DNA from: an uncultured Actinomycetes bacterium
GTDB taxonomy: Bacteria > Actinomycetota > Thermoleophilia > UBA2241
DNA: 64,000 nt
Reading direction: 5' to 3'
Assembly: GCA_963725665.1 (NCBI GenBank)
Contig: CAVRZA010000004.1
Span: 160,001 to 224,000 of the forward strand
Part shown: in pieces, positions 38,531 through 64,000 of the stretch
Layout: each line of letters opens with the position of its first letter
How positions within the stretch are numbered: position 1 is the stretch's first letter
Program-made: the position numbers and the translations under genes
The notes under the pieces: model-generated
What the model was told of the DNA's origin: nothing
Databases searched by the model: none
The model's input: the letters and a program-made list of their open reading frames with translations, nothing else

Positions 38531-39175
38531 TCACGCGAGCTCCGTAGCCACCATCACGGCTTCGTAGGCCGAGGCCGCCCAGCCGTCGGCGCCGATCTGG
38601 TCGGCCCACGCCTGAGTGGTAGCCCCACCTCCGACCATGACCTGGTACTTGTCGCGCGTCCCTTGCTCCTTGAGCGCTTCGATCAGGTCGCGCTGCCCTA
38701 CCAGCGTAGTGGTCAGCAAGGCAGACATGGCGATGATGTCCGCGTCGACCTCCTTCGCCTTGTCGACGAACTTGAAGAGGTCGACGTCGATGCCCAGGTC
38801 CCAGACCTCGAAGCCCGACGTCTCGAAGAGGAGTCTGAGGATGTTCTTGCCGATCGAATGCAGGTCGCCCTTGACCGTGCCGAGGACGATCTTGCCCTTC
38901 TTGGGCCCCTCGCCGCCGCTCTCCCTGATCTTTGGCTCGAGGATCTCCATGGCCGCTTGAAAGGCCAGCGCGGCCTGCATCAGCTCGGGCAGGAAGATCT
39001 CCTCGCACTCGAACTGCTCGCCGATCACGTTGAGCCCGGGCAGAAGCCCCTGATCGATGATGGCTTTCGCCTCGACACCCTCGGCGAGGGCATCGTCGAC
39101 CGCCGCGAGGACCGCGTCCTGGTCCTGGTCGATGACCGCCTGCTTGAGCTTCTCAAAGACCTGTTCGTCTGTCAT
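38531..39175 (-). CDS. Methyltransferase cognate corrinoid protein (MtmC/MtbC/MttC-like)
   Basis: IFLPELM cap domain, GTVKGDLHSIGK (DxHxxG), SALLTTT, VGG. Confidence 0.93.
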   Translation of the reverse strand: MTDEQVFEKLKQAVIDQDQDAVLAAVDDALAEGVEAKAIIDQGLLPGLNVIGEQFECEEIFLPELMQAALAFQAAMEILEPKIRESGGEGPKKGKIVLGTVKGDLHSIGKNILRLLFETSGFEVWDLGIDVDLFKFVDKAKEVDADIIAMSALLTTTLVGQRDLIEALKEQGTRDKYQVMVGGGATTQAWADQIGADGWAASAYEAVMVATELA

Positions 39176-39253
39176 CTGGTGCGCTCCCTGTCCCTTCTTC
39201 AGCCTGCGCTGTTGTTCAGGCCGATCGTCGCCCGTGTCGTGGCCGCCGGGTCG

Positions 39254-40711: not shown

Positions 40712-40716
40712 CAGGC

Positions 40717-42006
40717 CTACACCTCACTCTCGCCGGCGGGGGCCGGGGTGGCGGGGGACTGGGCACGGGCGGGATCCGAGCCAGCGACGACGGCCGCCGA
40801 CGCGGCGATCTCGGCCAGCTCTGCAATGTGGCTCTCAATGAACTCAATCAACTTCACCTGATGCTCGAGGTACATGAGGTACTCGTCGTCGTTGCGCGCT
40901 GTCTTGTCCTCGTAGTAGGCGGTGACGTCCCAGTTGAGTACGTACAGGTTGCCGTTGGCGATCATGCGCGGCAGCAGCGCCAGCTCGGCCGCCGACATGG
41001 GACCGGGCTCGTCGTGCCTGGCAGCCTCGTCCTGGTAGGCGCGCACGAAGATGGCGGTCTTGTCGAGCCACAGCTCACCGCTGTCCGGCCCCTCCCAGGA
41101 GCTGCAGAAGTACGCCAGGGCGAGGCCCAGGTCAAAGAGGCGGTAGTCGAGCTTCGACCAGTCGAAGTCGAAGAAGCCGGTGCACGAGGACCCAGACCAC
41201 TCCACGGGGCGCATCGCGACGGCCTCCTGGTCGACCCACTTGAGGTTGCCGGGGTGGAAGTCGCAGTGCACTGGGATGAAGGGCATCCCCAGCAGCTGTG
41301 GCTCGATCGCGGTCCCCTTCTCGATGACCTCGAGGATCGCCGGCAGCTTGGCGAGGAAGTATTCGTCACTGCGCGTGTCGGTCGCTTGGGTCGCGCAGTC
41401 CTTGAAGGTGGCCGGAAGGCTGCGCAGCAGGTCCATGATCGGCGGCTGTTCGCGGGCGAGGCCTCGCGGATCGAAGTCGTGAGCGCAATAGTGGAAGTCG
41501 GACAGCACGCGCGCCGCGCTGTCAAGCTCTCTGTCGGTGCAGCGGTTCTTGACCCACGTGTACCTGTCCGCGCCGCTGAGCATCTCGTAGACGGCGAAGA
41601 AACGCACGAGCGTTCCGCCGTCGAGGACCTCCTCCCGAGTGACGAACGTGCCCGCGGCTTTGGTCGGGAAGACCTGCGCCGCCAAGTGGAAGCCTTTGCG
41701 GTTGATGTGACTCACGAGCGCGTGCTCGAAGCGGACTTCGCGCTCGGTGATGGCGCGGTTGTACTTGCGCACGAAGTAGCGGCGCTCACCGCTGCCGTCG
41801 TCGGCCCAGATGGCGAAGCTCAGGTTGACGTAGCCGCCGGTGATCTGTTCGATGCGCACGAACGCGCCCAGGTCGTAGTCGGTGGTGAAGACCTCGACGA
41901 GCTGCCCGGCGAGGAACTCCCATTCCAGCACGTCGCGCAGATGCGTGGTCTCCGCGACGAGGCTCTTCGTCAGCTCGAACAGCTCGTTCGCTCGCCGTAT
42001 GTCCAC
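40717..42006 (-). CDS. APH / homoserine kinase type II-like phosphotransferase
   Basis: GGYVN, FVRKY, HCDFHPGN, FDFDW. Confidence 0.88.
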   Translation of the reverse strand: MDIRRANELFELTKSLVAETTHLRDVLEWEFLAGQLVEVFTTDYDLGAFVRIEQITGGYVNLSFAIWADDGSGERRYFVRKYNRAITEREVRFEHALVSHINRKGFHLAAQVFPTKAAGTFVTREEVLDGGTLVRFFAVYEMLSGADRYTWVKNRCTDRELDSAARVLSDFHYCAHDFDPRGLAREQPPIMDLLRSLPATFKDCATQATDTRSDEYFLAKLPAILEVIEKGTAIEPQLLGMPFIPVHCDFHPGNLKWVDQEAVAMRPVEWSGSSCTGFFDFDWSKLDYRLFDLGLALAYFCSSWEGPDSGELWLDKTAIFVRAYQDEAARHDEPGPMSAAELALLPRMIANGNLYVLNWDVTAYYEDKTARNDDEYLMYLEHQVKLIEFIESHIAELAEIAASAAVVAGSDPARAQSPATPAPAGESEV

Positions 42007-42031
42007 AGCGCTCCCCCTCAGATCCGTGCCT

Positions 42032-42844
42032 TCACGCGACGACGCACCGCATCCCCGCGCGCTCTATCTGCTCGCGCGCGGGCTCCTCGACGCTGTCGTC
42101 TATCACGACCACGTCGACCTGGTCCGCGCGACAGATCACCACGTCGGCGACCACGCCGATCTTGCTGCGGTCGGCGAGCACGATCACCTCGCCGCGCGTG
42201 TGGTCGATCATCGCGCCTTCGATGCTGGCCATGGCGAGGCTCGGTGTGGTCACGCCCTCTTCGAGGTCGAACCCGTCGGCGCCGATCAACGTCTTGCCGG
42301 CGCGGAAGCGTTCCAGGTGCTCGAGGGCCGGCGGACCCTCGACCGCGTTCGTGCGCGGGCTGTAGAACCCGCCCAGCAGGATGAGCTCGAGGCGCAAGCC
42401 TTGGGCCTCGGTCACGGCGCCGACGTTGTGCGTGATCACCCGCGCCTGGAGCGCGGGATCGACGTGGCGCAGAACGCGTGCCGCCGTGGTGCCGTTGCTC
42501 AGGAACACCGTCTCGCCGGGCTGGATCATGGCCGCCGCCGCCTTGGCGATGCGCCCTTTCTCCTCCGTGTGCGCCGCCGCGCGCTCGACGTAGAGCGGCT
42601 CTTCGAGCATATGGCGCTTGAGGATCGCGCCGCCGTGGGTGCGCAACAGCATGCCCTCGGCTTCGAGCCGCTCGAGGTCCCTGCGGATGGTCATCTCCGA
42701 GACGCCGAGATCCTCGCTCAGCGACGAGACGCGCACCTCGCGCCGCTCGTTGAGGATCTCGACGATGCGCACGCGGCGCCCGGCTGGGATCATCTCACGG
42801 ACCTCAGGGACTCCTGTCGGTGACACTGGTTCCCTTGTGCTCAT
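42032..42844 (-). CDS. DeoR/GlpR-family transcriptional regulator
   Basis: VSEMTIRRDL, RTHGGA, GTT, LADRSK. Confidence 0.93.
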   Translation of the reverse strand: MSTREPVSPTGVPEVREMIPAGRRVRIVEILNERREVRVSSLSEDLGVSEMTIRRDLERLEAEGMLLRTHGGAILKRHMLEEPLYVERAAAHTEEKGRIAKAAAAMIQPGETVFLSNGTTAARVLRHVDPALQARVITHNVGAVTEAQGLRLELILLGGFYSPRTNAVEGPPALEHLERFRAGKTLIGADGFDLEEGVTTPSLAMASIEGAMIDHTRGEVIVLADRSKIGVVADVVICRADQVDVVVIDDSVEEPAREQIERAGMRCVVA

Positions 42845-42862
42845 GGTTGCCGCCCGGCGATT

Positions 42863-42889
42863 CCGAACATAGTCGCACACATCATAGCA
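42863..42889 (-). promoter_or_regulatory. Extended -10 promoter (TGCTATGAT) with downstream ATGTTCG box
   Basis: Minus strand tgctatgatgtgtgcgactatgttcgg just upstream of the deoR start. Confidence 0.5.
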
Positions 42890-43046
42890 CTCGCCGACCG
42901 GATTCAAGCTGTGCAGTTCTGGGAGATGTTGGGCGGCCCTGCCGGGTGTTGAGAGTGGCAGACTAGTCGAAAAGTCTTGACATCATAGGAGCCGAGGAAG
43001 AAGGTTGCGCCGACAGGTTTGGCCATGCTGAGCATTGGGGGTCTCT

Positions 43047-49832: not shown

Positions 49833-50132
49833 ATGCCGAGCGTGAGAAGACGAACCGAGAAGAAGCGGACCGGGCCGGGCGTCGGCTCGCGCCGGCGCTA
49901 CTGCCACTTCTGCAAAGAGAAGATCGACGTGATCGACTACAAGGAGTTCGGGGCGCTGCGCAAGTTCATCAGCGACAGGGGCAAGATCAAGTCGCCGCGC
50001 ACCACCGGGACCTGCCGGCGCCACCAGCGCCAGGTGGCCGTCGCCGTCAAGCGGGCCCGCGAGATGGCCCTTCTTCCCTACGTCTTCGCGGCCCCGGACG
50101 CGGAGAGGGGCGGTCGTCGGCGCCCTCGCTGA
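49833..50132 (+). CDS. rpsR: 30S ribosomal protein S18
   Basis: [40 protein letters not shown]. Confidence 0.95.
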
Positions 50133-50174
50133 CCGTCGCCTCTCTGAGCCACTGACGTCGGGCAGGTCGCTGCC

Positions 50175-51608
50175 ATGAAGGTCCGCCTCATCGAGCCCGC
50201 GCCGCGGGGCATGAACACGTTCAGCATGATCCTGCTCCCCCGCCTCGGTCTGCCCATTATCGCCACGACGCTCAGGCAGCAGGGGCACGACGCGAAGATC
50301 TACGCCCCTCAGATGGCGCCGGTCGTCTGGTCCGACGTCTACGACGCCGACCTGGTCGGGATCACGACGACCACCTCGACGGTGACCGACGCCTACCGGT
50401 TCGCCGACGACGTGCGCTCCCGCGGGATCCCGGTCGTCATGGGCGGCTCGCACGTGACGTTCATGGCCGATGAGGCTCTCGAGCACGCCGACTACGTCGG
50501 GCGCGGCGAGGGAGGCGAGCAGCTCATGCCCGAGCTGATCGAGGCGCTTGGCGGAGACCGTGAGCTGGAGAGCATCAAGGGCCTGTCGTTCCGCCGTGAC
50601 GGCGAGGCCGTGCACAACGAGCCGCGCGGCTTCTGCACGAAGCTCGAGGATCTGCCGTTCCCCGACATGACGCTGATCCACGGCCACGAGAACCTGCACA
50701 CGACGCCGATGATGACGAGCTGGGGATGTCCCTTCAACTGCCACTTCTGCTCGGTCACGGCGCTGTTCGGCAGGAAGTACCGCTATCGCAGCGCGGACAG
50801 TGTGCTCGCCGAGCTGCGCGAGAAGCGGCCGCGCAAGGTGTTCTTCTACGACGACAACCTGGCCGCCAACAAGCGCCGGCTCAAGGAGCTTCTGCGCAGG
50901 ATGATCGCCGAGGACCTGGTCACGCCGTGGTCGGCGCAGGTGCGCGTCGACGTCGCCAGGGACGAGGAGCTGCTCGAGCTGATGCGCGACTCGGGCTGCG
51001 TGATGGTGTACCTCGGTCTGGAGTCGGTGAACCAGGAGACGCTGGACAGTTACGACAAGCACCAGACCGTCCAGGACATCGTCGACGGCGTGCGGGCGCT
51101 GCATCGCTACGGCATCATGAGCCACGGCATGTTCGTCGTGGGGGCCGACTCCGACACGCGCCAGACCATCCAGGATACCGTCGACTTCGCCAAGAAGAAC
51201 GGCATCGACACGATCATGTTGAGCGCGCTCACGCCGCTTCCCGGCACCACGACCTTCCGCGAGCTCGACGAGCAGGGCCGCATCTTCGACAAGCGCTGGG
51301 AGTTCTACGACTCCCACCACGTCGTCTTCCATCCCGCCACGATGTCGGCCCACGAGCTGCAGCTCGAAGCCCTGAAGGCCTATCGTCGCTTCTACTCCAG
51401 GGGGCAGTGGCTCAAGTACCTTCTGACCTTCCGCTTCACGAGGCTCCTCTTTCAGACCTGGGGGATGTACATCAGGGCGAACTGGCTCCGGAACGAGGAC
51501 AACAAGGCTTTCATGACGTCGGTGCAGGAGGCCTCCGCCCGGCGTGCGCTGGCGCCCGCTCGGGCTCCGGACACTCCCGAGCCGGCGGCTCCCGGCTCCC
51601 CTTCCTGA
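50175..51608 (+). CDS. B12-binding-domain radical SAM protein
   Basis: PRLGL, VMGGSHVT, GEGG, GCPFNCHFC, FYDDN, LGLES. Confidence 0.92.
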   Translation: MKVRLIEPAPRGMNTFSMILLPRLGLPIIATTLRQQGHDAKIYAPQMAPVVWSDVYDADLVGITTTTSTVTDAYRFADDVRSRGIPVVMGGSHVTFMADEALEHADYVGRGEGGEQLMPELIEALGGDRELESIKGLSFRRDGEAVHNEPRGFCTKLEDLPFPDMTLIHGHENLHTTPMMTSWGCPFNCHFCSVTALFGRKYRYRSADSVLAELREKRPRKVFFYDDNLAANKRRLKELLRRMIAEDLVTPWSAQVRVDVARDEELLELMRDSGCVMVYLGLESVNQETLDSYDKHQTVQDIVDGVRALHRYGIMSHGMFVVGADSDTRQTIQDTVDFAKKNGIDTIMLSALTPLPGTTTFRELDEQGRIFDKRWEFYDSHHVVFHPATMSAHELQLEALKAYRRFYSRGQWLKYLLTFRFTRLLFQTWGMYIRANWLRNEDNKAFMTSVQEASARRALAPARAPDTPEPAAPGSPS

Positions 51609-51797
51609 GGTCCACCGGGCCGGCGCGGCGCAGCCTTCGCGACGGCTGCTTCCGCTTCTTCCTACCGCTCTCGCCGCTGCTCGCCACCGCTCTGCGCTCT
51701 CGCCACCGCTCCCGCCGCTGCTCTTCGCCACCGCTCCTGCCCGCCTTGGGGTATCGTTGCCGGCGGATCCCGCGCAGGCTTCGCTTGGAGGTAGACG

Positions 51798-52307
51798 ATG
51801 GACGTCCTCGATTGCATCGCGCAGCGCTACAGCGCGCGCGGCTATCGCTCCGACCCGGTGGACGAAGAGGCACTCGACAAGGTGCTCGAGGCGGCGCGTC
51901 TGGCGCCGACCGCCGCCAACCGGCAGCCGTTTCGCGTGCTGGTCATCCACACGGCAGGCAGGGAAAAGGAGCTCGCGCGCATCTATGGCCGGCCGTGGTT
52001 CGTCCAGGCGCCCCTCGTGCTGGCGGTCGTGGCGGTGCCGGGCGAGGCGTGGCGCCGCATGGACGACAAGCCCTACGACGAGGTCGACGCAACGATCGCC
52101 ATGGACCACCTGATCCTCGCCGCTGCCAGCCTCGGCCTGGGCACGTGCTGGGTCGCCGCCTTCGATCCGGCCGTGGCGCGTGATGTGCTTGGTCTGCCCG
52201 ACGATGTCGAGCCGCTCGCGTTCACGCCGCTCGGCTACGCGACGACGCCGCCAAAGGAGAAGAAGCGGCGGCCGCTCGCGGAGCTCGTCAAGTACGAACG
52301 CTGGTGA
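51798..52307 (+). CDS. Nitroreductase family protein
   Basis: RYSARGY, APTAANRQP, GLGTCW. Confidence 0.92.
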   Translation: MDVLDCIAQRYSARGYRSDPVDEEALDKVLEAARLAPTAANRQPFRVLVIHTAGREKELARIYGRPWFVQAPLVLAVVAVPGEAWRRMDDKPYDEVDATIAMDHLILAAASLGLGTCWVAAFDPAVARDVLGLPDDVEPLAFTPLGYATTPPKEKKRRPLAELVKYERW

Positions 52308-53673
52308 GCGCGTCGAGCAGCTCGTTCCAGGCGTCGAGATAGGCGTCGACGTCGTCGTCGACCGCCGGGATGGGGACCACGGGTCCGGCGCCTACGATCG
52401 CCTCCCACACGCTACGGTTCGCCAGCCAGATGCGGATCAGGCGCGCGAGCAAGTCGTCATGGCAGGCGCGCGCCTCGGCGGCGTCGCGGACCGGCGTCGG
52501 GCGGAACGTGTAGCCGGAGCGCGGCCCGAGATGGTGGATGTGCCAGGGCAGGCCGGTGCGCTCGACGCCGGCACGCATGCCTGCGGCGAGGCGCGCGCCC
52601 AGCCGCTGTGTGTGCGCGTAGGCCTCGGGCGTGAGCACCTCCAGCATGATCGCTTTCGCCGCCGCCATAGAGAGGGCGTTGCCGAAGAGCGTGCCACCGG
52701 TGGCGACCAGGTCGGAGCGCTCGCCGTCGGAGCCCTTCGCCTGCGTCAGTACCTCCGCGACTTCGTCGGTCATGCCCCAGGCACCGAACGGCACTCCGCC
52801 GGCGATCGACTTGCCGCTGGTCACGAGGTCGGGCGCGAGCCCCCACATCTTTGTCAGCCCACCCGGACCGACGACTTGAGTGTGCGTCTCGTCGAACGCC
52901 AGGAGGGTGCCGGTCTCGCGCGTGACCGCCCGCAAGGCGTCGTTGAAGCCCGGCTCGGGGAGGATCAGGCCGAAGTTGTTCGTCAGCGCTGGCTCGGTGA
53001 GCACGAGGGCCACCTCGTGGCCCTCGAGAGCCCGAGCCAGCGCCTCGGGGTCGTTGAAGGGCACGATGACCGTCTGCTCGATCACGCTCCTGGGCAGGCC
53101 CTTCTCCTCGGGAACAAGCTTGCCGTCGGCCTTGAGCTCGACGAGTGTCTGGTCGAAGTGCCCGTGGTAGTGGCCGTCGAACATGAGCACCTTCTCGCGC
53201 CCGGTCACGACGCGGGCGACGCGGATCGCCTCGGTGTTGGCTTGCGACGCCGACAGCGTGTACTGCCACTTCGGCAGGCTGTAGCGGCGGCCGAGCTCCT
53301 CAGAGACGACGATCGCGTCCTCCGTCGGGAGGAGGAACTGGTTGCCGCGCGCGATCCTCTCGGAAACAGCCCGCACGAGCGGCTCGGGCGCGTAGCCGCA
53401 GAACATCGACATGTCGGCGATGTTGAAGTCGCTGTAGGTATGTCCGTCGACGTCCGTGAAGCGGGCGCCGCGTCCCTCGACGACCCAGAGCGGTGGGTGG
53501 TGGTAGCTGCCGACGAGCCAGGCCATGGGTACGCCGTTCGGCATGACGCGGCGCCCGCGCTCCAACAGCTCTACGGAGCGTGGGTGAGCGTCGCGGAAAC
53601 GCGCGTCTTCCCGATTCTTCAACTCGCGCACAAGGGCGCGCTCGACGGTGAACACGGGGTCGATGGTCGTCAT
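52288..53673 (-). CDS. Class III PLP aminotransferase (GSA-aminomutase-like)
   Basis: DVDGH, YHG, FDETH, SGKSIAGG, GGTLFGN. Confidence 0.9.
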   Translation of the reverse strand: MTTIDPVFTVERALVRELKNREDARFRDAHPRSVELLERGRRVMPNGVPMAWLVGSYHHPPLWVVEGRGARFTDVDGHTYSDFNIADMSMFCGYAPEPLVRAVSERIARGNQFLLPTEDAIVVSEELGRRYSLPKWQYTLSASQANTEAIRVARVVTGREKVLMFDGHYHGHFDQTLVELKADGKLVPEEKGLPRSVIEQTVIVPFNDPEALARALEGHEVALVLTEPALTNNFGLILPEPGFNDALRAVTRETGTLLAFDETHTQVVGPGGLTKMWGLAPDLVTSGKSIAGGVPFGAWGMTDEVAEVLTQAKGSDGERSDLVATGGTLFGNALSMAAAKAIMLEVLTPEAYAHTQRLGARLAAGMRAGVERTGLPWHIHHLGPRSGYTFRPTPVRDAAEARACHDDLLARLIRIWLANRSVWEAIVGAGPVVPIPAVDDDVDAYLDAWNELLDALTSVRT

Positions 53674-53921
53674 GGAGCGACTCCTCCTCGTCGATCGAAG
53701 CCGGCGTCGCCGGCGGCCGTCACGGCAGGTCGCGGCCGCCGGCCCATAGGAGCATTCGCCGCCGCCACTCCCTCGTCAAGTCAGCCCGACGGTATGCTTG
53801 TCGCTGATCAGTGCGCCGGAGTGGGGTGCTGGTCGGGATCATGGAGGCTGCCGGCTTGTTCTCGGGGCGGCGTCCCGGAGTGCGTGTGGGTGCGCGCTCC
53901 GGTGTCAGGAAGGGGCTGCGT

Positions 53922-55358
53922 GTGAAGGCAGAGTTGCGAGTCTTGAGCCCGGCCGAGCGCGAGCAAGTGCACGAGCGCACGCTGCACGTCCTCGCCACCA
54001 AGGGCATGCGCGTCGACACGGCCCAGGGACGTGTGATCCTCCGCGAAGCCGGGGGGCAGGTCGACGAAGAGACGCGCGGTGTCCGCTTCCCCGAGGAGCT
54101 CGTCGAGCGGTCGATCGACATGGCGACCAAGGAGTTCGCGCTCGGCGGTCGCCGAGCCGATTGGAGCTTCGCGCTGAACGCCGGCGGCTTCTCGCTCTGT
54201 GCAGACGGCGGCAGCAACGTGTTGCTCGACCGGCGCACGGGCGAGCGCCGCGATTCGACATTCGAGGATTGGCTCGAGATGACGCGCGTCCTCGACGCCA
54301 TCGAGGACGTCGGGATGTACTGGTGCATGATCGACGGCGGTCTCGACTGGTCGACGCCCGTCGGCATGGTCGAGTACCTGACGCACCTGTTCGGCACGTT
54401 CGGGCGCCACGTGCAGGACTCCTACGACACGCCGCGGGTCATGCCCTGGGTCACGCGTGCGCTCGAGGTCGTCTTCGGCAGCCGCGAGGAGGTGCGTCGC
54501 CGGCATCCGTTCTCGTTTCTGATCACGCCGGCCTCGCCCCTGATCATCGAGGAGCACTACACCGAGTCCTGGCTCGCCTCACGCGGCTACGATATTCCCG
54601 TCGCCGTGATGCCGATGCCGCTCATGGGCGCCACCGCGCCCGGGAGCCGCATCGCCACGCTGGTGCAGGCGAACTGCGAGGTCCTGGGCACGCTCTGCCT
54701 GGTGCAGGCGGCCGACCCGGGGGTGCCGTTCATCTACGCGCCCGTCGTCGCTAGCATGGACCCGCGCAGCGGGCGCTACAGCGGCGGCGCCATGGAGCAC
54801 TACGTGCTCGGCGCCGCCGCGACCGAGATGGCCCGTCACTACGGCTTTCCAGTGCTTGCCAGCGGCTGCGGCACCGACCATTTCGTGCCCTCGCTGCAGG
54901 CGGCCTACGAAAAGGCGATGAGCGCTCTGCTCGTTACCCTCTCGTGGCCCGACTTGCTAGTTGGCCCCGGCATGCTCGGCGGCGCCTCGGTCATGAGCTT
55001 CGAGCAGCTCGTCATGGACGTCGAGGTCTTCCGCGCCGCGCGCGCCGCGCACGAGGGCATCACGGTGAGCGATGAGTCATGGCTGGATGAAGCTGTGGCG
55101 CACGTCGACTTCGGCGGCAGCTTCCTGTTCGAGAGATCGACCAAGGAGAACGTGCGCCGCGGCGAGTGGGCGATGAGCCGCTTCGGCCTGCACGACACGC
55201 GCGGCGCCTGGGAGCGCGGCGGCTCGCCGACGACGCTCCAGCAGGCGCGCGACGAGGTAGAGCGGCTCCTCGCCTCGCACGAGCCGGAGCCGCTCCCCGA
55301 GGACGTCGCGCGCGCGCTGCGAGATCTGCGTCGTGAGGCGGCCGCGGCGTCCTCCTGA
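53922..55358 (+). CDS. MttB-superfamily methyltransferase, pyrrolysine-free (second copy)
   Basis: VHERTLHVL, SPL, GATAP, MDPRSG, QAAYEK. The Pyl site is occupied by Gly (SGC-G-TDH). Confidence 0.88.
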   Translation: MKAELRVLSPAEREQVHERTLHVLATKGMRVDTAQGRVILREAGGQVDEETRGVRFPEELVERSIDMATKEFALGGRRADWSFALNAGGFSLCADGGSNVLLDRRTGERRDSTFEDWLEMTRVLDAIEDVGMYWCMIDGGLDWSTPVGMVEYLTHLFGTFGRHVQDSYDTPRVMPWVTRALEVVFGSREEVRRRHPFSFLITPASPLIIEEHYTESWLASRGYDIPVAVMPMPLMGATAPGSRIATLVQANCEVLGTLCLVQAADPGVPFIYAPVVASMDPRSGRYSGGAMEHYVLGAAATEMARHYGFPVLASGCGTDHFVPSLQAAYEKAMSALLVTLSWPDLLVGPGMLGGASVMSFEQLVMDVEVFRAARAAHEGITVSDESWLDEAVAHVDFGGSFLFERSTKENVRRGEWAMSRFGLHDTRGAWERGGSPTTLQQARDEVERLLASHEPEPLPEDVARALRDLRREAAAASS

Positions 55359-55465
55359 GAGTCCACCGGCTTGGCGTTGGCGGTGCGGGGGCAGAATCCC
55401 CTCTGTCTTCGGGCTTTTCCCGAGGGCGTCGCGGTGCTCAGATCAGAAGGACGGGCCGGGTCGCA

Positions 55466-55675
55466 GTGTGGAGGTCCAAGTCATGGTGGCTCTTCGTCGG
55501 CTTGCTTGCCGCTGCGTTGACGGCCGTCGTGGTCATCGCGTTCGTGACCTCGAGCCCCTTGACGAGCTACGGCGGCAGGGCGCCGCGTCCCGCCGGCCTG
55601 AGCGCGCCTGCGGCGCCGTATCCATCCCTGCACCCGGGCGCCGGCTCCGCCTCGGTGTCCGGCGCGTCGCAGTGA
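55466..55675 (+). CDS. Small membrane-anchored hypothetical protein
   Basis: 69 aa with one hydrophobic helix. Confidence 0.4.
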   Translation: MWRSKSWWLFVGLLAAALTAVVVIAFVTSSPLTSYGGRAPRPAGLSAPAAPYPSLHPGAGSASVSGASQ

Positions 55676-55688
55676 CCGTGGCCATCTG

Positions 55689-56396
55689 ATGGCTACGCTC
55701 TACACAGGCACCTCGGGGTTCGCTTACCCGGCGTGGAAGCCGGGCTTCTACCCGTCCACGGTGCCCGCCGCGAAGTTCCTTGAGTACTACGCTACGCGGC
55801 TCAATTGCGTCGAGATCAACTACACCTTCAGGCGCATGCCCGCCGCATCCACACTGCAGTCGTGGGTCGACCTCACCCCCGAGGGGTTTGCCTTCGCCGT
55901 CAAGGCGCACCAGCAGATCACGCACTTTCGCCGCCTCAAAGACGCCGGCGAGCCCACGCAGGCATTCCTCGCCGCCCTGGAGCCGCTGCGCGCCGCCGGC
56001 AGGCTTGGTCCCGTGCTGTTCCAGCTTCCGCCGCACCTGAAGGTCGACGTGGAGCGGCTCGATGCCTTTCTCGAGCTGCTGCCGCCCGACTCGAGATACG
56101 CCTTCGAGTTCCGCGACGCCTCGTGGTTCGTCGACGACGTGTACTCGCTGCTCGGCGAGTACGGCGTGTCGCTGTGCGTGGCCGAGTCCGACAAGCTGGA
56201 AGTACCCGATGTCGTCACCGGCGGCTTCGTCTACTACCGCTTGAGGAAGCCGACCTACGACGAGGCCGACCTCGACGGCGTCGTCGCTCGCTCGCGGCAG
56301 GTGCTGGCCGGCGGGCGCGACGTGTACGTGCTGTTCAAGCACGAAGACGACCCGACGGGAGCCCTCTACGCGGAGCGCGTGCTCGCGGCGGCGTAG
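55689..56396 (+). CDS. DUF72 family protein
   Basis: GTSGF.Y..W, VEINYTF, LFQLPP, FEFR..SW. Confidence 0.92.
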   Translation: MATLYTGTSGFAYPAWKPGFYPSTVPAAKFLEYYATRLNCVEINYTFRRMPAASTLQSWVDLTPEGFAFAVKAHQQITHFRRLKDAGEPTQAFLAALEPLRAAGRLGPVLFQLPPHLKVDVERLDAFLELLPPDSRYAFEFRDASWFVDDVYSLLGEYGVSLCVAESDKLEVPDVVTGGFVYYRLRKPTYDEADLDGVVARSRQVLAGGRDVYVLFKHEDDPTGALYAERVLAAA

Positions 56397-56524
56397 CCGC
56401 GGGTGGCTTGCGCCGTCGGCAGCCGAGCCCGCGTCGGCTTGCACTGGCGCGCTTCGGCGGTAGTGTTAGCGGACCGCGAATCGACCTCGTCGTGGCGTCG
56501 TGCGGCGAGGGGAAGGAGAGGCCC

Positions 56525-58049
56525 GTGTCCATCGTCCTTGACGGCAGCTCGCTGACGATCGAGAAGCTGGCGGCCATCGCCCGTGACGGCGAGGCGGTCG
56601 TGCTCGACGCGGCGGCTCTCGAGCGCATCCGTCGCTGCCGCGAGATGCTCGAAGAGAAGCTCGCGGCAGGCGAGATCATGTACGGCACCAACACCGGCAT
56701 CGGCGAGTTCTCCGAGGTCGTGCTCAACGACCAGCAGGTGCAGGAGTTCCAGCGCTCGCTCATCTACAACCACGCCGCCGGCATCGGCGAGCCGGCCCCC
56801 GAGGAAGTCGTGCGCGCCGCCATGGCGAGCCGTGTCAACGTGCTCGCCCGCGGGCACTCCGGCATCCGCGCCGAGATCCCGCTCACCCTGGTGAAGATGC
56901 TCAACGGCGGCGTCACGCCGGTGATCTGCCAGAAGGGCTCCGTAGGCGCCTCCGGCGACCTCGCCCCGATGGCGCAGATGGCGCTGCTCATGATGGGCGA
57001 GGGCGAGGCCTTCTACCAGGGCGAGCGCCTGCCCGGGCGAGCGGCCATGGAGCGGGCCGGCATCCCGGTGCCGGGCCTGCATGCCCGCGACGGCCTGGCG
57101 ATCATCAACGGCTCCAACGTGCTTACCGCCATGAGCGCCCTGCTGCTCGTCGACGTCGAGCGCTGGCTGCGCCAGGCGGAGATCGCCTGCGCCATGAGCC
57201 TCGAGGCGCTGCTGGCGAACCTCAAGCCCTACGACGTGCGCCTGCACGAGCTGCGCGGCTTCGCCGGCGCGGTCCGCAGCGCCCGGACCATCATGCGCTG
57301 CATCGAGGGCAGCGACCTGGCCACGGGCAAGATCAAGACCAAGGTCCAGGACGCTTACTCGATGCGCTCATCGCCGCAGGTGATCGGGGCGGCGCACGAC
57401 GCCGTCGCCTTCGCTCGCTCGCAGGTCGAGATCGAGCTCAACGGGGTCGGCGACAACCCCATCTTCCTGCCCGACGAGAGGCTCACGCTCACCGGCGCCA
57501 ACTTCCAGGGCACGCCCGTCTCACTGCCCATGGAGCTGGTCGGTCAGGCAATCACGATGGTCTGCGTGTTGAGTGAGCGGCGCCTGAACCGCCTCGAGAA
57601 CCCCGCCCTCAGCCAGGGGCTGCCCGACTTCTTAACGCCCGACCCCGGCTTCTACTCGGGCCTGATGCTCAGCCAGTACACCGCCGACACGCTGATCGTC
57701 GAGCAGCGCCTCCTCTCCGCCCCCGCCTCGACGATGTCGATCCCCGCCGCGGCCGACCAGGAGGACTTCGTCTCCATGGGCATGAACACGGCCCTCAAGA
57801 ACCGGCAGATCCTCGAGAACGCGTGCGGGGTGCTGGGCATCGAGTTCATGGCGGCGGCGCAGGCGCTCGACTTTCGCGACTTCACGCCCGGGAAGGGGCG
57901 TGCGGGTCGCGCACGACGTCATCCGGCGGCACGTGGCGCACCTGGATGAGGACCGGCCTCTCTACCCAGACCACAACGCGATGATGGCTCTCGTGCGCTC
58001 TGGCGAGATCCTCGCGGCGGTCGAGGAGGCCGTGGGACCGCTGGCGTGA
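56525..58049 (+). CDS. MIO-dependent aromatic amino acid ammonia-lyase (HAL/PAL family; frameshift near 57895)
   Basis: YGTNTG, GSVGASGDLAP (ASG MIO), QDAYSMR, DNP, QEDFVSMG. The C-terminus continues in a shifted frame (VAHLDEDRPLYPD) to TGA 58047-49. Confidence 0.88.
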
Positions 58050-58162
58050 GGCTGTGGTACGTATTTCACAGTGGTTGAGCAGCGAGTATTCTGTCTTGCT
58101 TGCAAGGGGTCGCGCGCTTCCGGGAGCCACGACGCGTGACGAAGACAAAGGGGAGGAAGACT

Positions 58163-59188
58163 ATGCGTGACTTGTCCACAAGGTCGAGGGTCCTGAGCCT
58201 CGCCACCATCCTCGGGCTGGTCGGGCTGGCGCTGCTCGTCGCCGGCTGCGGGAGCAGCACCACGACGAGCAGCGCCAGCCCCAGCGCCAGCCCGAGCGCG
58301 ACTTCCACCGCGGCCGCGCCGTGGACCGCCGCCGACCTCGCCGCGATCACGACCGACAGCTCACTCACGGCCTTGCTGCCGGCCGACATCCAGAGCAGCG
58401 GCGTGATCAAGTGCCTGAGCGACATCCCGTACCCGCCGTGGGAGTACTTCGACCCGCCGACCAGCACCAATCCGGCCGGCTTCGACTTCGACATGTCCCA
58501 GGCGCTGGGAAAGAAGCTCGGCGTCGAGGTCAAGTTCATCGACAGTACGTTCGAGTCCATCCTGCTCAAGATCAAAGGCGGCCAAGGCGACATGGCCTTG
58601 TCGGCGATGTACGACAACGAGGAGCGTCAGAAGGCCGGCTACAGCTTTGTCGACTACACGTTCGACGGCACAGGCATCCTGGTCGCCAAGGGCAACCCCA
58701 ACGGGATCACCGGCCTGGACAGCCTCGCGGGTAAGACGGTCGCCGTCGAGAGTGGCGCGACACAGGTGGTTGTGCTTCAGGAACTGAACAAGGACTTTCA
58801 GAGCGCCGGCGAGTCGCAGATGCAGATCCTGAGCCTCCCGGACCAGCCCGCGGCGCTGCTCGCGGTCAAGAGCAATCGGGCCGTCGCCGACCTGACCGAC
58901 TTCTCCACAGCCGTGGACATCGCCACGACGAACGACGGCAACACCTTCGAGGTGGTCCGCGATCCGGCGGCGCCCTACGAGCCGCAGATGAACGGTATGG
59001 CCGTGCTCGCCACGAACACGCAGCTCGTGGACGCCCTCCAGAAGGCGCTGCAGGCCCTGATCGACGAGGGTTCCTACCAGAAGCTGGTCGCGGCGTGGGG
59101 CTTCGTCCCTGTCGAGTCGGCGCAGGTGAACCAGGGTCCGGCCTACGCCGCGAGCCACGCAGGTCTCCCCGTGAGCCCCTCGCCGTAA
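58163..59188 (+). CDS. Polar amino acid ABC transporter substrate-binding lipoprotein
   Basis: Lipobox LVAGC, YPPWEY, GFDFD, SAMYDNEER. Confidence 0.9.
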   Translation: MRDLSTRSRVLSLATILGLVGLALLVAGCGSSTTTSSASPSASPSATSTAAAPWTAADLAAITTDSSLTALLPADIQSSGVIKCLSDIPYPPWEYFDPPTSTNPAGFDFDMSQALGKKLGVEVKFIDSTFESILLKIKGGQGDMALSAMYDNEERQKAGYSFVDYTFDGTGILVAKGNPNGITGLDSLAGKTVAVESGATQVVVLQELNKDFQSAGESQMQILSLPDQPAALLAVKSNRAVADLTDFSTAVDIATTNDGNTFEVVRDPAAPYEPQMNGMAVLATNTQLVDALQKALQALIDEGSYQKLVAAWGFVPVESAQVNQGPAYAASHAGLPVSPSP

Positions 59189-59192
59189 CACC

Positions 59193-60170
59193 ATGACGGT
59201 TGTGGGACCTTCTGGCCAGCTTGAAGGAGGTGCGGCGGCGCCCGGGGCGGGCTTGCCCGCCCCGGGCGCCGCGCGCCCGGAGGCGATAAAGGCGATCCCG
59301 GTCCGTCACTGGGGCCGCTGGATCGGCGCCGCTATCGTCATCTACCTGGTTGTGGCTCTCGCGTACTCGTTCGTCAAGAACAGCAACGTGGAGTGGCCGG
59401 TGGTATGGGAGTACCTGTTCAAGCCGCTGACGCTGCGCGGCCTGTTGCTCACGATCGAGCTGACGTTCGTCTCGATGGTGATCGGCGCGGCCGGCGGAGT
59501 CCTTCTGGCTGTGATGCGGCTCTCCGACAACTACGTGCTCTCGGGTATCGCCTGGGTCTACATCTGGTTCTTCCGTGGCACCCCGGTCTACGTGCAGATC
59601 ATCATCTGGGCCAACCTGGGTGTGTTTTATCCGAATGTCATCGCGGGGCTGCCGTTCACCGGTGTCGTGTTCGGCTCCACCGACAGCGGCACACTCGTGG
59701 CGCGCATCATCGTGCCCGCCATCCTCGCCCTCGGTCTGAACGAGGCGGCCTACGCCGCCGAGCTGGTGCGGGCCGGCATCATCTCCGTCGAGGCGGGTCA
59801 GACCGAAGCGGCGCTGTCGCTGGGCATGTCGCCCACGCTCACCATGCGCCGGGTCGTGTTGCCGCAGGCGATGCGTGTGATCATCCCCACGTTCGGCAAC
59901 GAGACGATCAGCATGCTCAAGACAACGTCGCTGATCGCCGCCATCGGCGGCCTCGAGATGTTCGGCCGCCTGCAGTCGGTCTACTCACAGACCTACCAGA
60001 TCATCCCGCTGCTCGTCGTGGCCTGCATCTGGTATCTCTTCCTCACGTCGGTCCTGACCATCGGCCAGGGCTACCTCGAGGCGTATTTTGGGAAGGGCTT
60101 CGGGGAGAAAGAGGCCGAGGCCGCGGAGAAGCGGGCCGTGAAGCGAGCAGCGAGGGCGCCGCATGTCTGA
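59193..60170 (+). CDS. Polar amino acid ABC transporter permease
   Basis: [34 protein letters not shown]. Confidence 0.93.
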
Positions 60171-60981
60171 CGAGAGCGGACATATTGTCTCGCCGACCGT
60201 CTCGGGGGTGTCGGCCGGCCAGCCCATGGTCAAGGCCGAGCAGGTCTGGAAGAGCTTCGGCAAGCTCGACGTGCTCAAAGGCATCGATCTCGAGGTCATG
60301 CCCCAGGAGACCTACGTCCTCCTCGGTCCGTCGGGCGGCGGCAAGTCGACGCTCCTGCGCTGCATCAACCATCTCGAGAAGATCAACGCCGGGCGGCTGT
60401 GGGTCGGCGGCGAGCTCATGGGCTATCGCCAGAGGGGCGATGTCCTGCATGAGATGCGGGCGAAGGACGTCGCGCGTCAGCGCTCTGAGGTGGGCATGGT
60501 CTTCCAGCGCTTCAACCTCTTCCCGCACATGACCGCCATCGAGAACGTGATGGAGTCGCCGATCAAGGTGCAGCACGTGCCTCGCCAGCGAGCCGAGAAC
60601 GAGGCCGAGGAGCTGCTGACCAGGGTGGGCCTGAAGGAGAAACTCGACGTGTACCCGGCTCAGCTCTCGGGTGGCCAGCAGCAGCGCGTCGCCATCGCCC
60701 GGGCCCTGGCCATGAAGCCCAAGCTGATGCTCTTCGACGAGCCCACCTCGGCGCTCGACCCCGAACTGGTGGGCGAGGTGCTCGACGTGATGAAGCAGCT
60801 TGCCCGCGACGGCATGACCATGGTCGTCGTGACACACGAGATGGGCTTCGCCAAGGAGGTCGCCGACGGCGTGGCGCTGATAGACGGCGGCGTCATTGTC
60901 GAGAATGGTCCGCCGCTCGAGGTTCTCGTCAACCCGAAGGAAGAGCGCACGAAGCTCTTTCTGTCGAAGGTGCTCTCCTAG
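60163..60981 (+). CDS. Polar amino acid ABC transporter ATP-binding protein
   Basis: [22 protein letters not shown]. Confidence 0.95.
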
Positions 60982-61143
60982 GGGCATCGTCAATGACCCG
61001 GGCAGAGAGAGGCTCTGCTCGCGGCATCGTCCAGTCGGCCGCGACGTCGCGAACCAGCAGTCGCGCACCGCGTCCCCGCGGCCGAGTGTCGCGCCAGGGT
61101 CCATAGAATCGCCGCAACCAAGCCACGGGAGGAAGGTCCGCTC

Positions 61144-61803
61144 ATGTCGACCACCGAGAAGCTCATCCTGGCCGTGCAGGACGGTGACGGCGAACAAGCC
61201 GCCGCCCTTGCCCGTCAGGCCCTCGACGAGGGCGCCGAAGCGGCAGCCCTCGTCGACGCGCTGACGGGCTGCATACGCGAGATCGGCGATCGCTTCGGCA
61301 CCGGCGAGATCTTCCTGCCCGAGCTGATGCTGGCTGGGCGCGCGATGCAGGGCGCGATGAGCGTCCTCGAGCCGGAACTTGTGAGGTCGTCGGCCGCCCT
61401 GCGGAAGCGCGGCACCATCGTGATCGGCACCGTGAAGGGCGACGTGCACGAGATCGGCAAGGATATCGCCACCACCATGCTCAAGGCGGCGGGGTTCGAT
61501 GTGCACGACCTCGGTCGGGACGTGAGCTCGTTCGACTTCGTGCGCCGGGCCGAGGAGGTGCACGCCGACATCATCGGCGCCTCCGCCCTGATGACCACGA
61601 CGATGCCGGCGCAGAAGGAGATCATCGACGTCCTCGAGGCGAAGGGCCTGCGCGCGAAGTACCACGTGATCATCGGCGGCGCCCCGGTCACCAGCGAGTG
61701 GGTCGCCGAGGCGGGCGCCGACAGCTGGGGCGAGGACGCCGGTAAGGCCGTGAAGATCCTCGAGCAGGTGATGGCCGAGAAGGCCGGGAAGCTGGAGGGC
61801 TGA
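61144..61803 (+). CDS. Methyltransferase cognate corrinoid protein (second)
   Basis: IFLPELM, GTVKGDVHEIGK, SALMTTT, IGGAP. Confidence 0.93.
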   Translation: MSTTEKLILAVQDGDGEQAAALARQALDEGAEAAALVDALTGCIREIGDRFGTGEIFLPELMLAGRAMQGAMSVLEPELVRSSAALRKRGTIVIGTVKGDVHEIGKDIATTMLKAAGFDVHDLGRDVSSFDFVRRAEEVHADIIGASALMTTTMPAQKEIIDVLEAKGLRAKYHVIIGGAPVTSEWVAEAGADSWGEDAGKAVKILEQVMAEKAGKLEG

Positions 61804-61807
61804 CGAC

Positions 61808-63193
61808 ATGCCGCACCTGAAGATGTGGGAGATCATGCAGCGGGCCGCCGAGGGCCCCTTCTGCGAAGACGACACCTTCCTCTACGAGGTCTTCCTGCCG
61901 ACGATGAAGCAGGTCCTGCGCAAGTACGAGATCAGGTTCGACCCGGCCTCACCGGTGCCCGCAGACGACGATCTCGCCGACCGCGTCTGGCGAGGCCGCC
62001 GTCGAGCTGTTCCTCGAGGTCGGCGTGCACAACGTCGACACGCAGCGGCGCATCATGATCAGCGAGGCCGAGCTGAACGAGGCGCTCTACCTCGCGCCCC
62101 GAGCAGCACATCGTCGGGGCGGGCCACGAGACGCGCTGGTGGAGGCCGCGTCGTGTCGAGGACGAGCGCGCGCCGTTCTGCATCTTCAGCCCCGACATCA
62201 CCTACGACGAGGACATCTTCCTGCAGGCCTCGATGGCCTACGTGCAGGAGCCTCTGGCCGACGGTGTGTGCGGTCCTATCCTCGAGGAGAGCATCGGCGC
62301 GCAACATCGTCTCGGGCACGCCCTCGGAGATGGCCGGCGTGATGGAGCACGCCATGTTGCTGCGCAACGCGGCGAAGCTGGTCGGCCGGCCGGGGCTCTT
62401 CTTGGTCGCGGTGGGCACCGCCCAGTCCGACACGGGTCAGGTCGCCGTCAGCAACGACGAGTGGGGTGTGCGCGCGAGCGATGGTCGCCTCATCGGCGTG
62501 CTTACCGAGATGAAGACCGACAACGAGCTTCTGAACAAGGTCGCTCACTGCAAGCAGTACGGCTGCGCCATCGGCTGCCTGACGGGCGCCATCTACGGCG
62601 GCTACGCCGGTGGCGCCGAGGGCACCGCCGTGCTCGAGACCGCCCATCACCTGGTGGGCCTGACCGTCTACCAGCACAACTTCAACAACAGCTTCCCGTT
62701 CCACCTGCAGTACACGTCCAACAGCGGGCGGGAGATGCTGTGGGTGGTCAGCATGGTGCACCAGGCGCTGGCGCGCAACAGCCGCATCCTGTCGACCTCG
62801 CAACGGCTTCTTCAACGCCGGACCGGGGACCGACATGCTCCTCTACGAAGCGGCCGCGCACGCCATCGCCAGCACCGTGTCCGGAGGCGACCTGTGGACG
62901 GCGGCGCCGCGGCACAACAAGTACCGCAACTACGCGACGCCGCTCGAGGCGCGTCTCGCCTGCGAGGCCGCCCACGCTGTGGCGCGGCAGGGGATGACGC
63001 GCGCGCAGGCCAACGAGATCGTCGTACAAGCTCCTCGGCGAGTACGAGGAGACGATCGCCGACGCCCCGGCCGGCAAGCCCTTCCAGGAGTGCTACGACG
63101 TCATGAAGGTGCGGCCGAAAGAGCTGGTACCTCGACATGTACAAAGCCGCCAAGGAGAAGCTACACGGCCTGGGCGTCGAGTTTCCCTATTGA
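61808..63193 (+). CDS. MtmB-family methyltransferase homologue, pyrrolysine-free (multiple frameshifts, probably sequencing errors; pseudogene not excluded)
   Basis: DDDLADRVW, GRPGLFL-V-AVGT at the Pyl position, IYGGYAGGAEG, shifted-frame GPGTDMLLYEAAA and AGKPFQECYDV, ends LGVEFPY-TGA. Confidence 0.8.
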
Positions 63194-63211
63194 GGCTGGC
63201 GCTGCCCGGCG

Positions 63212-64000
63212 TTACGGCCCGTCCACGCGCGGGGAGGCGACCGCCGTCGTCTGGTAGAGACCGGCGGCGACCTCGCGGCTGCCTCCGTGGAGCTGAGAAA
63301 GCGTCAGACGCTGCAGGCTGAGCGAGAGCAGTCCCGCGCCCACGGCCACCACAAGCTGCATCGCCTGGAAGCCGAGGGCGAAGGCGATGGCCGGTCCGCT
63401 CTCGATGCCGTAGACGGCGAGCGCCGCGACCGCAGCGGCCTGGAAGGTCCCCACGTTGCCCGGCGTGGCGGGGATGAGCCCGATGATGTTGGTCAGCACG
63501 AGCACGAGCGCAGCGCCACGCAATCCGGCGCCCTCGAGGTGGAAGGCGTGGAGCGCCGCGAACGCCGCCGCCACCTGCACCAGCCAGGCGAGCGCCTGCA
63601 CGCCGAGCTCCGACAGGGCCGACGAGGGCCTGCCCATGATGCGCTGGCTCTCGGCAAGCTCCGGCAGGTAATGGCCGACCCTCTGCCGCAGCCGCGACGC
63701 GCGGCCCGAAGGGAACCGAGGCAGGCGCAGCTCGAGACGCCGCGGGTACCCCTTGCGTTCGCTCTCGCGACGCTCACGCTGGCGCTCGAGGATCACGAGG
63801 CCGCCCAGGCACGCGCACGAGAACACGGCTCCGAAGACGAGCACCTCGACAGCCCACGACGGTGCGGAGAGAGTCGACACGATCGCCAGTGCGAGCGCCA
63901 CGAAGCTGACGGTGGCGAAGAGCCGCTCGGTGAGGCTCATGCCGAGCGCCGTCGCGAAGTGCACCGTCGCGCGTCGCCGGCGCAGCAGGATCGACAGCAC
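63212..64000 (-). CDS. Lysylphosphatidylglycerol synthase TM-domain (UPF0104 flippase-like) protein, 5' part outside the window
   Basis: TERLF, PATPGNVGTFQ, hydrophobic helices. Confidence 0.8.
   Translation of the reverse strand: MLSILLRRRRATVHFATALGMSLTERLFATVSFVALALAIVSTLSAPSWAVEVLVFGAVFSCACLGGLVILERQRERRESERKGYPRRLELRLPRFPSGRASRLRQRVGHYLPELAESQRIMGRPSSALSELGVQALAWLVQVAAAFAALHAFHLEGAGLRGAALVLVLTNIIGLIPATPGNVGTFQAAAVAALAVYGIESGPAIAFALGFQAMQLVVAVGAGLLSLSLQRLTLSQLHGGSREVAAGLYQTTAVASPRVDGP

Follow-up and report, generated by a model that had tools for sequence, protein, structure and literature searches.

What is a corrinoid protein doing, together with a homologue of the methylamine methyltransferase MtmB, behind an ammonia-lyase and an amino acid importer? 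The question is raised by a stretch of 64,000 nt (68% G+C; G000:C4:160001-224000, that is contig CAVRZA010000004.1 of GCA_963725665.1; hereafter the window) from the genome G000, which amounts to 3.73 Mb in 12 contigs and whose host is described as a soil or wetland actinobacterium. Pfam searches bore out an earlier reading of the bare sequence (the original prediction), by which the region 56525-63193 of the window encodes, all on the forward strand, a lyase of the histidine ammonia-lyase (HAL) family, a polar-amino-acid ABC importer, a corrinoid protein and an MtmB homologue free of pyrrolysine (Pyl), here called MtmBh. We describe these genes as two separable units, unit A being the lyase, which carries the 4-methylideneimidazole-5-one (MIO) motif, with the importer, and unit B the corrinoid protein with the Pyl-free MtmB-family methyltransferase. 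Their common theme is probably the oxygen-free degradation of a methylated histidine-type amino acid. Our specific proposal, corrinoid-dependent demethylation of a methylated histidine followed by its deamination, again without oxygen, strikes us as evenly poised between right and wrong, the substrate being unproven.

MtmBh belongs to a Pyl-free clade of the MtmB family

An intact orthologue of MtmBh from the related genome G018 (P0001) matches Pfam PF05369 with 319 bits over model positions 2-449 of 450, and M. barkeri MtmB (1l2q) with an E value of 3e-60; family membership is clear, and none of the NCBIfam models matched P0001. Like MtmB1/MtmC of Methanosarcina barkeri (1L2Q, 1NTH), MtmBh shows full-length homology and has an adjoining corrinoid protein. 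The hallmark of a true MtmB, an in-frame TAG or Pyl at position 202, is absent: as originally predicted, Pyl202 of M. barkeri MtmB aligns with Val, here in GRPGLFLVAVGT, in an alignment made on the intact orthologue, which is 85% identical to the window's protein and whose peptide at this site the window also carries. This Val (V200) is invariant in 15/15 aligned clade members. The same alignment sets MtmBh further apart from M. barkeri MtmB1 by Gly at E205 and Leu at E229, both of which we take to be residues with a role in the M. barkeri enzyme.

Of the candidates scored, 649 are related to P0001 at E <= 1e-10; the 120 best are 57-100% identical to it and 391-461 residues long. For their neighbourhoods one genome per species was scanned, which gave 201 relatives, and 80 loci (54-100% identity) were kept, which judging by record titles fall in the Actinomycetota (Thermoleophilia), Chloroflexota, Thermodesulfobacteriota, Spirochaetota, Bacillota, Pseudomonadota, Bacteroidota, Gemmatimonadota and Fidelibacterota. 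Neighbouring open reading frames (ORFs) of >= 90 residues (4477) were grouped by single linkage, and cluster representatives were named with Pfam and NCBIfam. A corrinoid protein adjoins MtmBh in 76 of the 80 loci and a polar-amino-acid ABC ATPase or binding protein in 28; the permease is found in 17. Clusters 0 and 4 are impure, the latter joining ATPase with binding-protein ORFs. Further recurrent neighbours are an MttB homologue (27), an Fdh-like molybdoenzyme (16), an IclR regulator (12), HAL, a HisC-type aminotransferase and an IOR-like subunit (11 each), an ADP-forming acyl-CoA synthetase (9) and urocanase (8).

Of the 80 loci, 13 contain HAL and/or urocanase, spread over four phyla and lying 11-4546 nt from the corrinoid and MtmBh genes; counting only loci that extend 2 kb or more to either side, the figure is 9 of 50. 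In four loci a HutI gene stands beside or between the hut genes, and six carry a GntR/UTRA regulator that comes closest to HutC but scores under that model's cut-off. Representatives exceed the equivalog cut-offs of HutH (654.8 against 539), HutU (434.5 against 375) and HutI (375 against 298). On a tree of 78 MtmBh rows, 2 loci without a 400-residue match having been left out, the hut label is found in both halves and needs nine changes, of which well-supported branches make at least eight unavoidable. One locus with the order urocanase, corrinoid protein, MtmBh (L058) falls within the G018 orthologue's own clade, nine rows from Thermoleophilia, and the window's corrinoid protein is 68-74% identical to the corrinoid genes that precede MtmBh in Thermoleophilia loci. 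By our own estimate, which assumes one hut operon per few-Mb genome and uses no control gene, hut adjacency within 9 kb would arise by chance in well under 1% of cases. These recurrent hut and importer neighbours tie the MtmBh clade to histidine catabolism and amino acid import, and a methylated histidine, the example given in the original prediction, is therefore a reasonable substrate.

Two side observations concern the same loci. Apparent tandem MtmBh paralogues in spirochaetes turned out to be overlapping shadow ORFs and an unrelated, merged ORF of 638 residues, and were discarded. In 6 of the 80 loci (L083, L087, L088, L091-L093) a gene with a homocysteine S-methyltransferase domain (PF02574, 254 bits) lies upstream of the corrinoid and MtmBh genes; its product may be the methyl acceptor in the Chloroflexota loci.

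A Pyl-free member of this family has one precedent: MtqB of Methanococcoides methylutens Q3c, a tetramethylammonium/choline:corrinoid methyltransferase with a conserved Met/Cys/aromatic pocket (PMC13044021; here and below, papers are cited from the parts of their text that were available). Pyl-free MtmB homologues are numerous in genomes, and in the available text of that paper a function is demonstrated for this one only. MtmBh resembles MtqB/MtqC in being a Pyl-free MtmB-family enzyme beside its own corrinoid protein, with a substrate presumably other than monomethylamine. It differs, in a comparison made by description only, in that MtqB is archaeal and feeds coenzyme M (PMC13044021), and in that the MtmBh clade adjoins hut genes and amino acid importers, with no choline or tetramethylammonium genes.

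The precedent bears on an alternative put forward in the original prediction, in which the lyase would split an N-alpha-methyl amino acid into an unsaturated acid and methylamine, the latter being used by MtmBh. MIO chemistry can in principle accept a secondary amine. Against this route stand the replacement of Pyl by Val, invariant across the clade, and the presence in the same genome of PylS (314.6 bits) and a TAG-containing MtmB (630.7 bits); clade neighbours, moreover, include importers and hut genes besides lyases, and monomethylamine demethylation by MtqB is described as small (PMC13044021). Given the missing Pyl and the little monomethylamine activity of MtqB, use of methylamine by MtmBh is unlikely, and we regard the route as a whole as quite improbable.

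The lyase is histidase-like and carries a YNH motif

The best solved relatives of the window's lyase are HALs (7tqr, 288 bits; 1gkm, 283 bits), with tyrosine aminomutase behind at 271 bits. Alignments show that it retains the Ala-Ser-Gly triplet, the Tyr loop and equivalents of H83, N195, Q277, Y280, R283, F329 and E414, in the numbering and with the roles that we assume for P. putida HAL; the triplet, the Tyr loop and the H83 and E414 equivalents are the catalytic features that it shares with P. putida HutH (1GKM). The translation also bears out the specificity segment first picked out from the DNA, QRSLIYNHAAGIG (YNH), and adds the MIO sequence GSVGASGD. Family-wide, these lyases depart from canonical histidases by YNH for (L/M)SH, NGSN for NGTQ, MRSS for LRC, NFQG for NFHG and DQEDF for NxEDH, the P. 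putida enzyme itself reading LSH, NGTQ, NFHG and NQEDH. The HutH equivalog TIGR01225 (cut-off 539.15) is missed by the window's partial protein (481.6) and by an intact orthologue (498), which barely passes the subfamily model PRK09367 (527.9 against 524); a paralogue on contig C8 of the same genome reaches 667.9. The expectation that this is something other than a plain histidase thus held up.

Nor does the lyase keep the company of a HutH. No hut genes occur within the 64-kb window, in line with the original remark that none are nearby; the genome's urocanase lies on contig C1 and its hutI-like gene on C8, and the genome has a separate HutH. A screen of 15 relatives' lyase loci with urocanase and hutI-type queries (three from the window's family and 12 from a second actinobacterial family, L039, L041 and L044-L048 having been left out) found neither hutU nor hutI beside the lyase. 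Judged by its sequence, the lyase is a histidase-like enzyme of a distinct subfamily, and its substrate is probably an imidazole amino acid. Its GSVGASGD triplet speaks against a trimethylammonia-lyase, since the HAL-family enzymes of that kind, namely ergothionase, the histidine betaine lyase Swoo_3913 and SO_3299, lack MIO and the triplet (bioRxiv 10.1101/2025.08.13.670108, 10.64898/2026.04.22.720169). The lyase would resemble these enzymes in acting on N-methylated histidines, and differs from them in keeping Ala-Ser-Gly.

Full or near-full orthologues of the lyase (83-88% identity) occur in 11 of 40 relatives, with fragments in one more, and most relatives' genomes also hold a separate paralogue of ~42% identity. 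In two of seven aligned relatives, L044 (G022) and L045 (G019), the MIO triplet reads Ala-Cys-Gly. Outside the window's family, three of 400 other genomes sampled from the phylum possess orthologues (81-85%), all three belonging to the second actinobacterial family, in which 12 of 121 genomes do so. Orthologues from the two families resemble each other about as closely as do those inside the window's family, and the gene may have been transferred between them.

The surroundings of these orthologues are of interest in their own right. In the related genome G021 an MttB homologue and an Fdh-like molybdoenzyme come after the lyase on its own strand, and on its other side the lyase faces a corrinoid gene and a second MttB homologue. 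In the second family a Rieske oxygenase lies within ~5 kb of the lyase in 5 of the 12 loci, four others being cut by contig ends; its best NCBIfam match is GbcA, a subunit of the N-demethylating glycine betaine monooxygenase, a resemblance at family level alone (185 bits against a cut-off of 670) and yet twice the score of ring dioxygenases. The loci concerned (L137-L139, L151, L152) also hold a luciferase-like monooxygenase and aldo/keto reductases. Such GbcA-like oxygenases may be an oxygen-using equivalent of the corrinoid demethylases; alternatively, they may hydroxylate the ring of the lyase product. Taken together, the contexts of the lyase favour a role with N-methylated substrates, short of proof.

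Are the two units linked?

Comparison with relatives shows that unit A is a unit elsewhere too. Of 10 lyase loci, six hold lyase, binding protein, permease and ATPase together, three have them apart and one contig is too short; in the same six the lyase is followed by orthologues of the permease (69-80%) and ATPase (83-88%), and in 5 of the 10 an orthologue of the DUF72 gene (63-67%) stands upstream. A search with the largest MtmB piece gave matches in 15 of 41 genomes (40 relatives and G000), and G018 alone holds an MtmBh orthologue (92% identity), the next best match outside G000 being at 38%. At the DNA level the window aligns with G018 over 61156-63194 only, at 80%.

Several of these results weigh against a functional link between the units. 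The conserved linkage of lyase and mtmB that had been envisaged did not hold: the corrinoid and MtmBh genes follow the ATPase in none of the 10 relatives' lyase loci, and in G018 they sit between PEPCK and a mannosyltransferase-like gene, with neither lyase nor amino acid importer. None of the 40 relatives has both orthologues, 11 having the lyase alone and one MtmBh alone, so the exact arrangement of lyase, importer and MtmBh is unique to this genome among those examined. The HALs found beside MtmBh elsewhere carry the canonical SH motif in 9 of 11 cases, unlike the YNH of the window, and the window's binding protein (~30%), permease (~30%) and MttB homologue (25-28%) are too distant from those beside MtmBh elsewhere to be orthologous. 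In the window itself a gap of 163 nt separates ATPase and corrinoid genes, and a promoter and terminator scan, weak either way, gave one promoter-like site, ahead of the binding-protein gene, and no terminator in the intergenic gaps. The genome is, finally, dense in such genes, with ~29 MttB-family loci, 4 MtmB-family loci and 13 corrinoid genes, so that by our own estimate any gene has a chance of ~10% of lying within 6 kb of a methyltransferase or corrinoid locus.

All this suits a reading in which the neighbourhood is accidental, lyase and importer making up an operon of their own that takes up and deaminates histidine or something closely analogous, and the MtmBh pair demethylating an unrelated compound, for instance choline or tetramethylammonium. 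Units A and B are apart in every relative examined, and the separate promoter-like site and the density of methyltransferase genes agree with it, as does the fact that the sole characterised Pyl-free MtmB uses tetramethylammonium and choline, as far as the available text of PMC13044021 goes. Seen from the other side, a HAL-family gene within 5 kb of a given gene would be expected in <1% of cases (own estimate, from three such genes in 3.7 Mb), yet in loci of four phyla, as described above, this MtmBh clade has HAL or urocanase for a neighbour, and lyase orthologues adjoin other demethylation genes. We consider an accidental neighbourhood unlikely, although it deserves serious attention.

Seven frame changes are almost certainly assembly insertions

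As deposited, mtmB runs through the frames (mod 3) 2>0>1>2>0>1>2, that is six changes, all +1. The C-terminus of the lyase likewise continues in the next frame after 57886-57899 and ends at 58048-58050, colinear with its orthologue, a frame change and true end that had escaped the original prediction. Are these genes broken in the organism? We compared 56400-63300 with Logan contigs from four metagenome runs of four studies. Relatives' contigs (X1, X2, X4) are exactly one base short at 57886, 61993, 62096, 62302, 62801, 63027 and 63114/63122; the other four indels among those listed form two pairs, each few bases apart and cancelling out, with seven more indels outside the list. Once a single base is removed at every one of the six mtmB sites, the gene reads through 459 codons without a stop, and the product aligns without gaps to the intact 459-residue G018 orthologue (390/459 identical), at a ratio of non-synonymous to synonymous substitution rates (dN/dS) of 0.17.

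The same kind of lesion is widespread in the assembly. A codon-usage hidden Markov model run over the whole genome marked 1202 same-strand frame transitions, of which 199 were candidates in having both frames open for >75 nt across the switch. Of these candidates, 154 are of the surplus-base kind and the other 45 are the reverse. Candidates come in runs, often 3-5 per gene (C4:364000-366000, C2:229600-231700, C6:454200-456100 and C1:258400-260800 are examples), and such runs split a class-II aminoacyl-tRNA synthetase (3), a Lon-like protease (5), an SBP_bac_5 gene and a radical-SAM gene. From the six switch regions examined, 10 pieces out of four were sent to Pfam and nine matched: adjacent pieces of the synthetase, the protease and the SBP_bac_5 protein match successive parts of one Pfam model each, and two pieces of the B12/radical-SAM enzyme match its two successive domains. 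Similar gene splits occur in some relatives' assemblies (L043, L046, L047).

The six frame changes of mtmB and the one of the lyase are almost certainly assembly insertions, which means that both genes are intact in the organism, as the original prediction required of mtmB. True pseudogenes, with mtmB and the 3' end of the lyase gene really broken in this strain, are very improbable. The changes do stand in the deposited sequence, and the compared contigs come from relatives, that is other strains (16 differences in 689 bases; 32 in 452). Yet all seven lesions are single surplus bases in genes otherwise free of stops, deletions and gaps, the low dN/dS points the other way, and an aminoacyl-tRNA synthetase and many other genes bear the same lesion. 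Programmed +1 frameshifting or four-base decoding we rate as extremely improbable: the shifts all go in one direction and by eye each can be read as an extra C between codons, but this placement was overturned by the alignment-based search, which puts the surplus base elsewhere with no common base, shared word or context, and relatives lack the extra base. The assembly being rich in single-base insertions, apparent pseudogenes in it need checking before they are believed.

A proposed route for methylated histidine

The sequences show what the genes are, that Val stands at the Pyl site, that the frameshifts are artefacts and that the clade recurs beside hut genes and importers; the substrate, the sequence of reactions and the joint working of the two units we infer. 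In the demethylation route that we favour, the importer would take up a methylated histidine-type amino acid, and MtmBh, possibly with the MttB homologue at 53808-55358, would move an N-methyl group onto Co(I) of the corrinoid protein. Pterin-binding methyltransferases would carry the methyl group onward while RamA-type activators keep the cobalt reduced, both being encoded elsewhere. What is left after demethylation, either histidine or an intermediate that keeps some methyl groups, would be deaminated by the window's lyase or by the canonical HutH on C8. The frequent MttB partner of the clade suggests a betaine, for example hercynine; on chemical grounds a ring-methylated histidine is an equally possible substrate.

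A wider proposal, tentative and in our eyes somewhat doubtful, is that the widespread Pyl-free MtmB clade, often together with a Pyl-free MttB homologue sharing one corrinoid protein, is the key to an undescribed anaerobic methylhistidine pathway. N-methyl groups would be stripped from hercynine, its partly methylated forms or ring-methylated histidine, and the histidine left would enter the Hut pathway. The YNH lyase would be dedicated to a methylated intermediate, its partners being corrinoid demethylases in anaerobes and GbcA-like oxygenases in aerobes.

Gene layout and other methyl-transfer genes of the genome

Coordinates of the locus and its surplus bases are collected in Table 1.

Table 1. 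Genes of the lyase-MtmBh region and single-base insertions within them (window coordinates).
Feature	Position	Strand	Evidence or remark
Class-III aminotransferase	52288-53775	-	upstream of MttB homologue
Pyl-free MttB-family methyltransferase homologue	53808-55358	+	Pfam MTTB 204.9 bits; no in-frame stop
DUF72 gene	55689-56396	+	Pfam DUF72 208 bits
MIO-containing HAL-subfamily lyase, YNH type	56525-58050	+	Pfam Lyase_aromatic 56525-57949, 539 bits; GTG start behind GAAGGAG
Surplus base in lyase (assembly insertion)	57886-57899	+	run X1 contig one base shorter; frame 2>0
Substrate-binding lipoprotein, polar-amino-acid ABC importer	58163-59188	+	SBP_bac_3 88.7 bits (match spans 58100/58163-59188)
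ABC importer permease	59193-60170	+	BPD_transp_1 61.6 bits
ABC importer ATPase	60163-60981	+	ABC_tran 120 bits
Methyltransferase-cognate corrinoid protein	61144-61803	+	B12-binding_2 65 bits, B12-binding 94.6 bits; DxHxxG = GDVHEIG
Pyl-free MtmB-family methyltransferase (MtmBh), 7 frame pieces	61808-63193	+	Pfam MtmB 61808-63106, 112.8 bits; 62835-63257, 31.3 bits
Surplus base 1, mtmB	61993-61995	+	X1 contig; corrected-frame alignment
Surplus base 2, mtmB	62096-62100	+	X1, X4 contigs; corrected-frame alignment
Surplus base 3, mtmB	62298-62302	+	X1, X2, X4 contigs; corrected-frame alignment
Surplus base 4, mtmB	62800-62801	+	X1, X2 contigs; corrected-frame alignment
Surplus base 5, mtmB	63025-63027	+	X1 contig; corrected-frame alignment
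Surplus base 6, mtmB	63114-63122	+	X4 at 63114, X1 at 63122; corrected-frame alignment

Good ribosome-binding sites precede the starts GTG 56525, ATG 58163, ATG 61144 and ATG 61808, that of the binding-protein gene being GGGGAGGAAG. The binding protein has an N-terminal signal peptide with the lipobox LVAGC, and passes no NCBIfam equivalog (best 94 bits against a cut-off of 256). Together with permease and ATPase it makes up a complete importer (SBP_bac_3, BPD_transp_1, ABC ATPase) in one operon, the genes lying 4 nt apart or overlapping. The corrinoid protein has both of its characteristic domains and the DxHxxG motif, and falls slightly below the cut-off of TIGR02370 (204.2 against 215.3). 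The MttB homologue, for its part, scores 315 with the NCBIfam model trimeth_pyl (cut-off 525), and is possibly a second demethylase. An Rfam search of 50000-64000 at E <= 0.1 returned no match.

The genome holds many further genes of this kind. Six of its ~29 MttB-family loci contain one TAG, and a dimethylamine methyltransferase gene, MtbB, occupies 29610-31106 (+) of the window with an in-frame TAG at 30756-30758; this and two other sites (G000:C3:245990-247345; G000:C6:296347-297081) are pyrrolysine-related. It appears from these genes that this Thermoleophilia-type actinobacterium decodes pyrrolysine. Three candidate pterin-binding methyltransferases and two RACo-type activators are encoded elsewhere in the genome, and because the genome has these together with PylS, TAG-containing methyltransferases and corrinoid proteins, we take the organism for a methylotroph on amines whose shared downstream parts are encoded elsewhere.

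Other loci deserve mention as observations. The genome's sole urocanase match (C1:189447-190073) belongs to a gene that, within C1:189001-192586, converges on a corrinoid gene and a gene for a URO-D-family (MtaA/MtbA-like) methyltransferase, with a GntR/FCD regulator adjoining. On contig C8 the HutH-grade lyase has its hutI-like gene downstream. The third HAL-family lyase of the genome (C11:231808-233382) has no Ala-Ser-Gly (GQS-D and a loop deletion). Immediately ahead of this lyase come a Pyl-free MttB homologue and an aldehyde:ferredoxin oxidoreductase, and we regard it as a candidate for a trimethylammonia-lyase akin to ergothionase or histidine betaine lyase. A cluster at 36026-42982 (-) of the window holds a choline/ethanolamine-kinase-like gene, a Pyl-free MtmB homologue (226.8 bits, no stop), a corrinoid protein, a Pyl-free MttB homologue, an APH-family kinase and a DeoR regulator. 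In the available descriptions it resembles the phosphocholine pathway of a kinase with MthB and MthC (PMC12155760), and it recalls choline use by MtqB (PMC13044021).

Relation to known systems and significance

The logic proposed here, a methyltransferase with a corrinoid protein and a tetrahydrofolate methyltransferase, is that of the Pyl-free MttB-superfamily demethylases MtgB, MtcB, MtpB, MtyB and MthB, whose substrates, in the parts of the papers available, are N-methylated osmolytes or amino-acid betaines (PMC8604678, PMC12155760). Those enzymes belong to PF06253, unlike MtmBh (PF05369). Pyl-free MtmB is mentioned by just two papers of the library searched. Our literature search, within the available text of the papers it returned, found none that ties MtmB, MttB or corrinoid proteins to histidine, urocanate, hercynine or methylhistidine; PMC13044021 may place the clade in its tree and supplements. 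What would be new here is a corrinoid-dependent methyltransferase system with a new predicted substrate.

If the MtmBh clade does demethylate methylated histidines, the MtmB family gains a second substrate class, and hercynine or methylhistidine would have an oxygen-free fate in sediments, wetlands and digesters. It would also help to explain why such organisms carry dozens of corrinoid methyltransferases.

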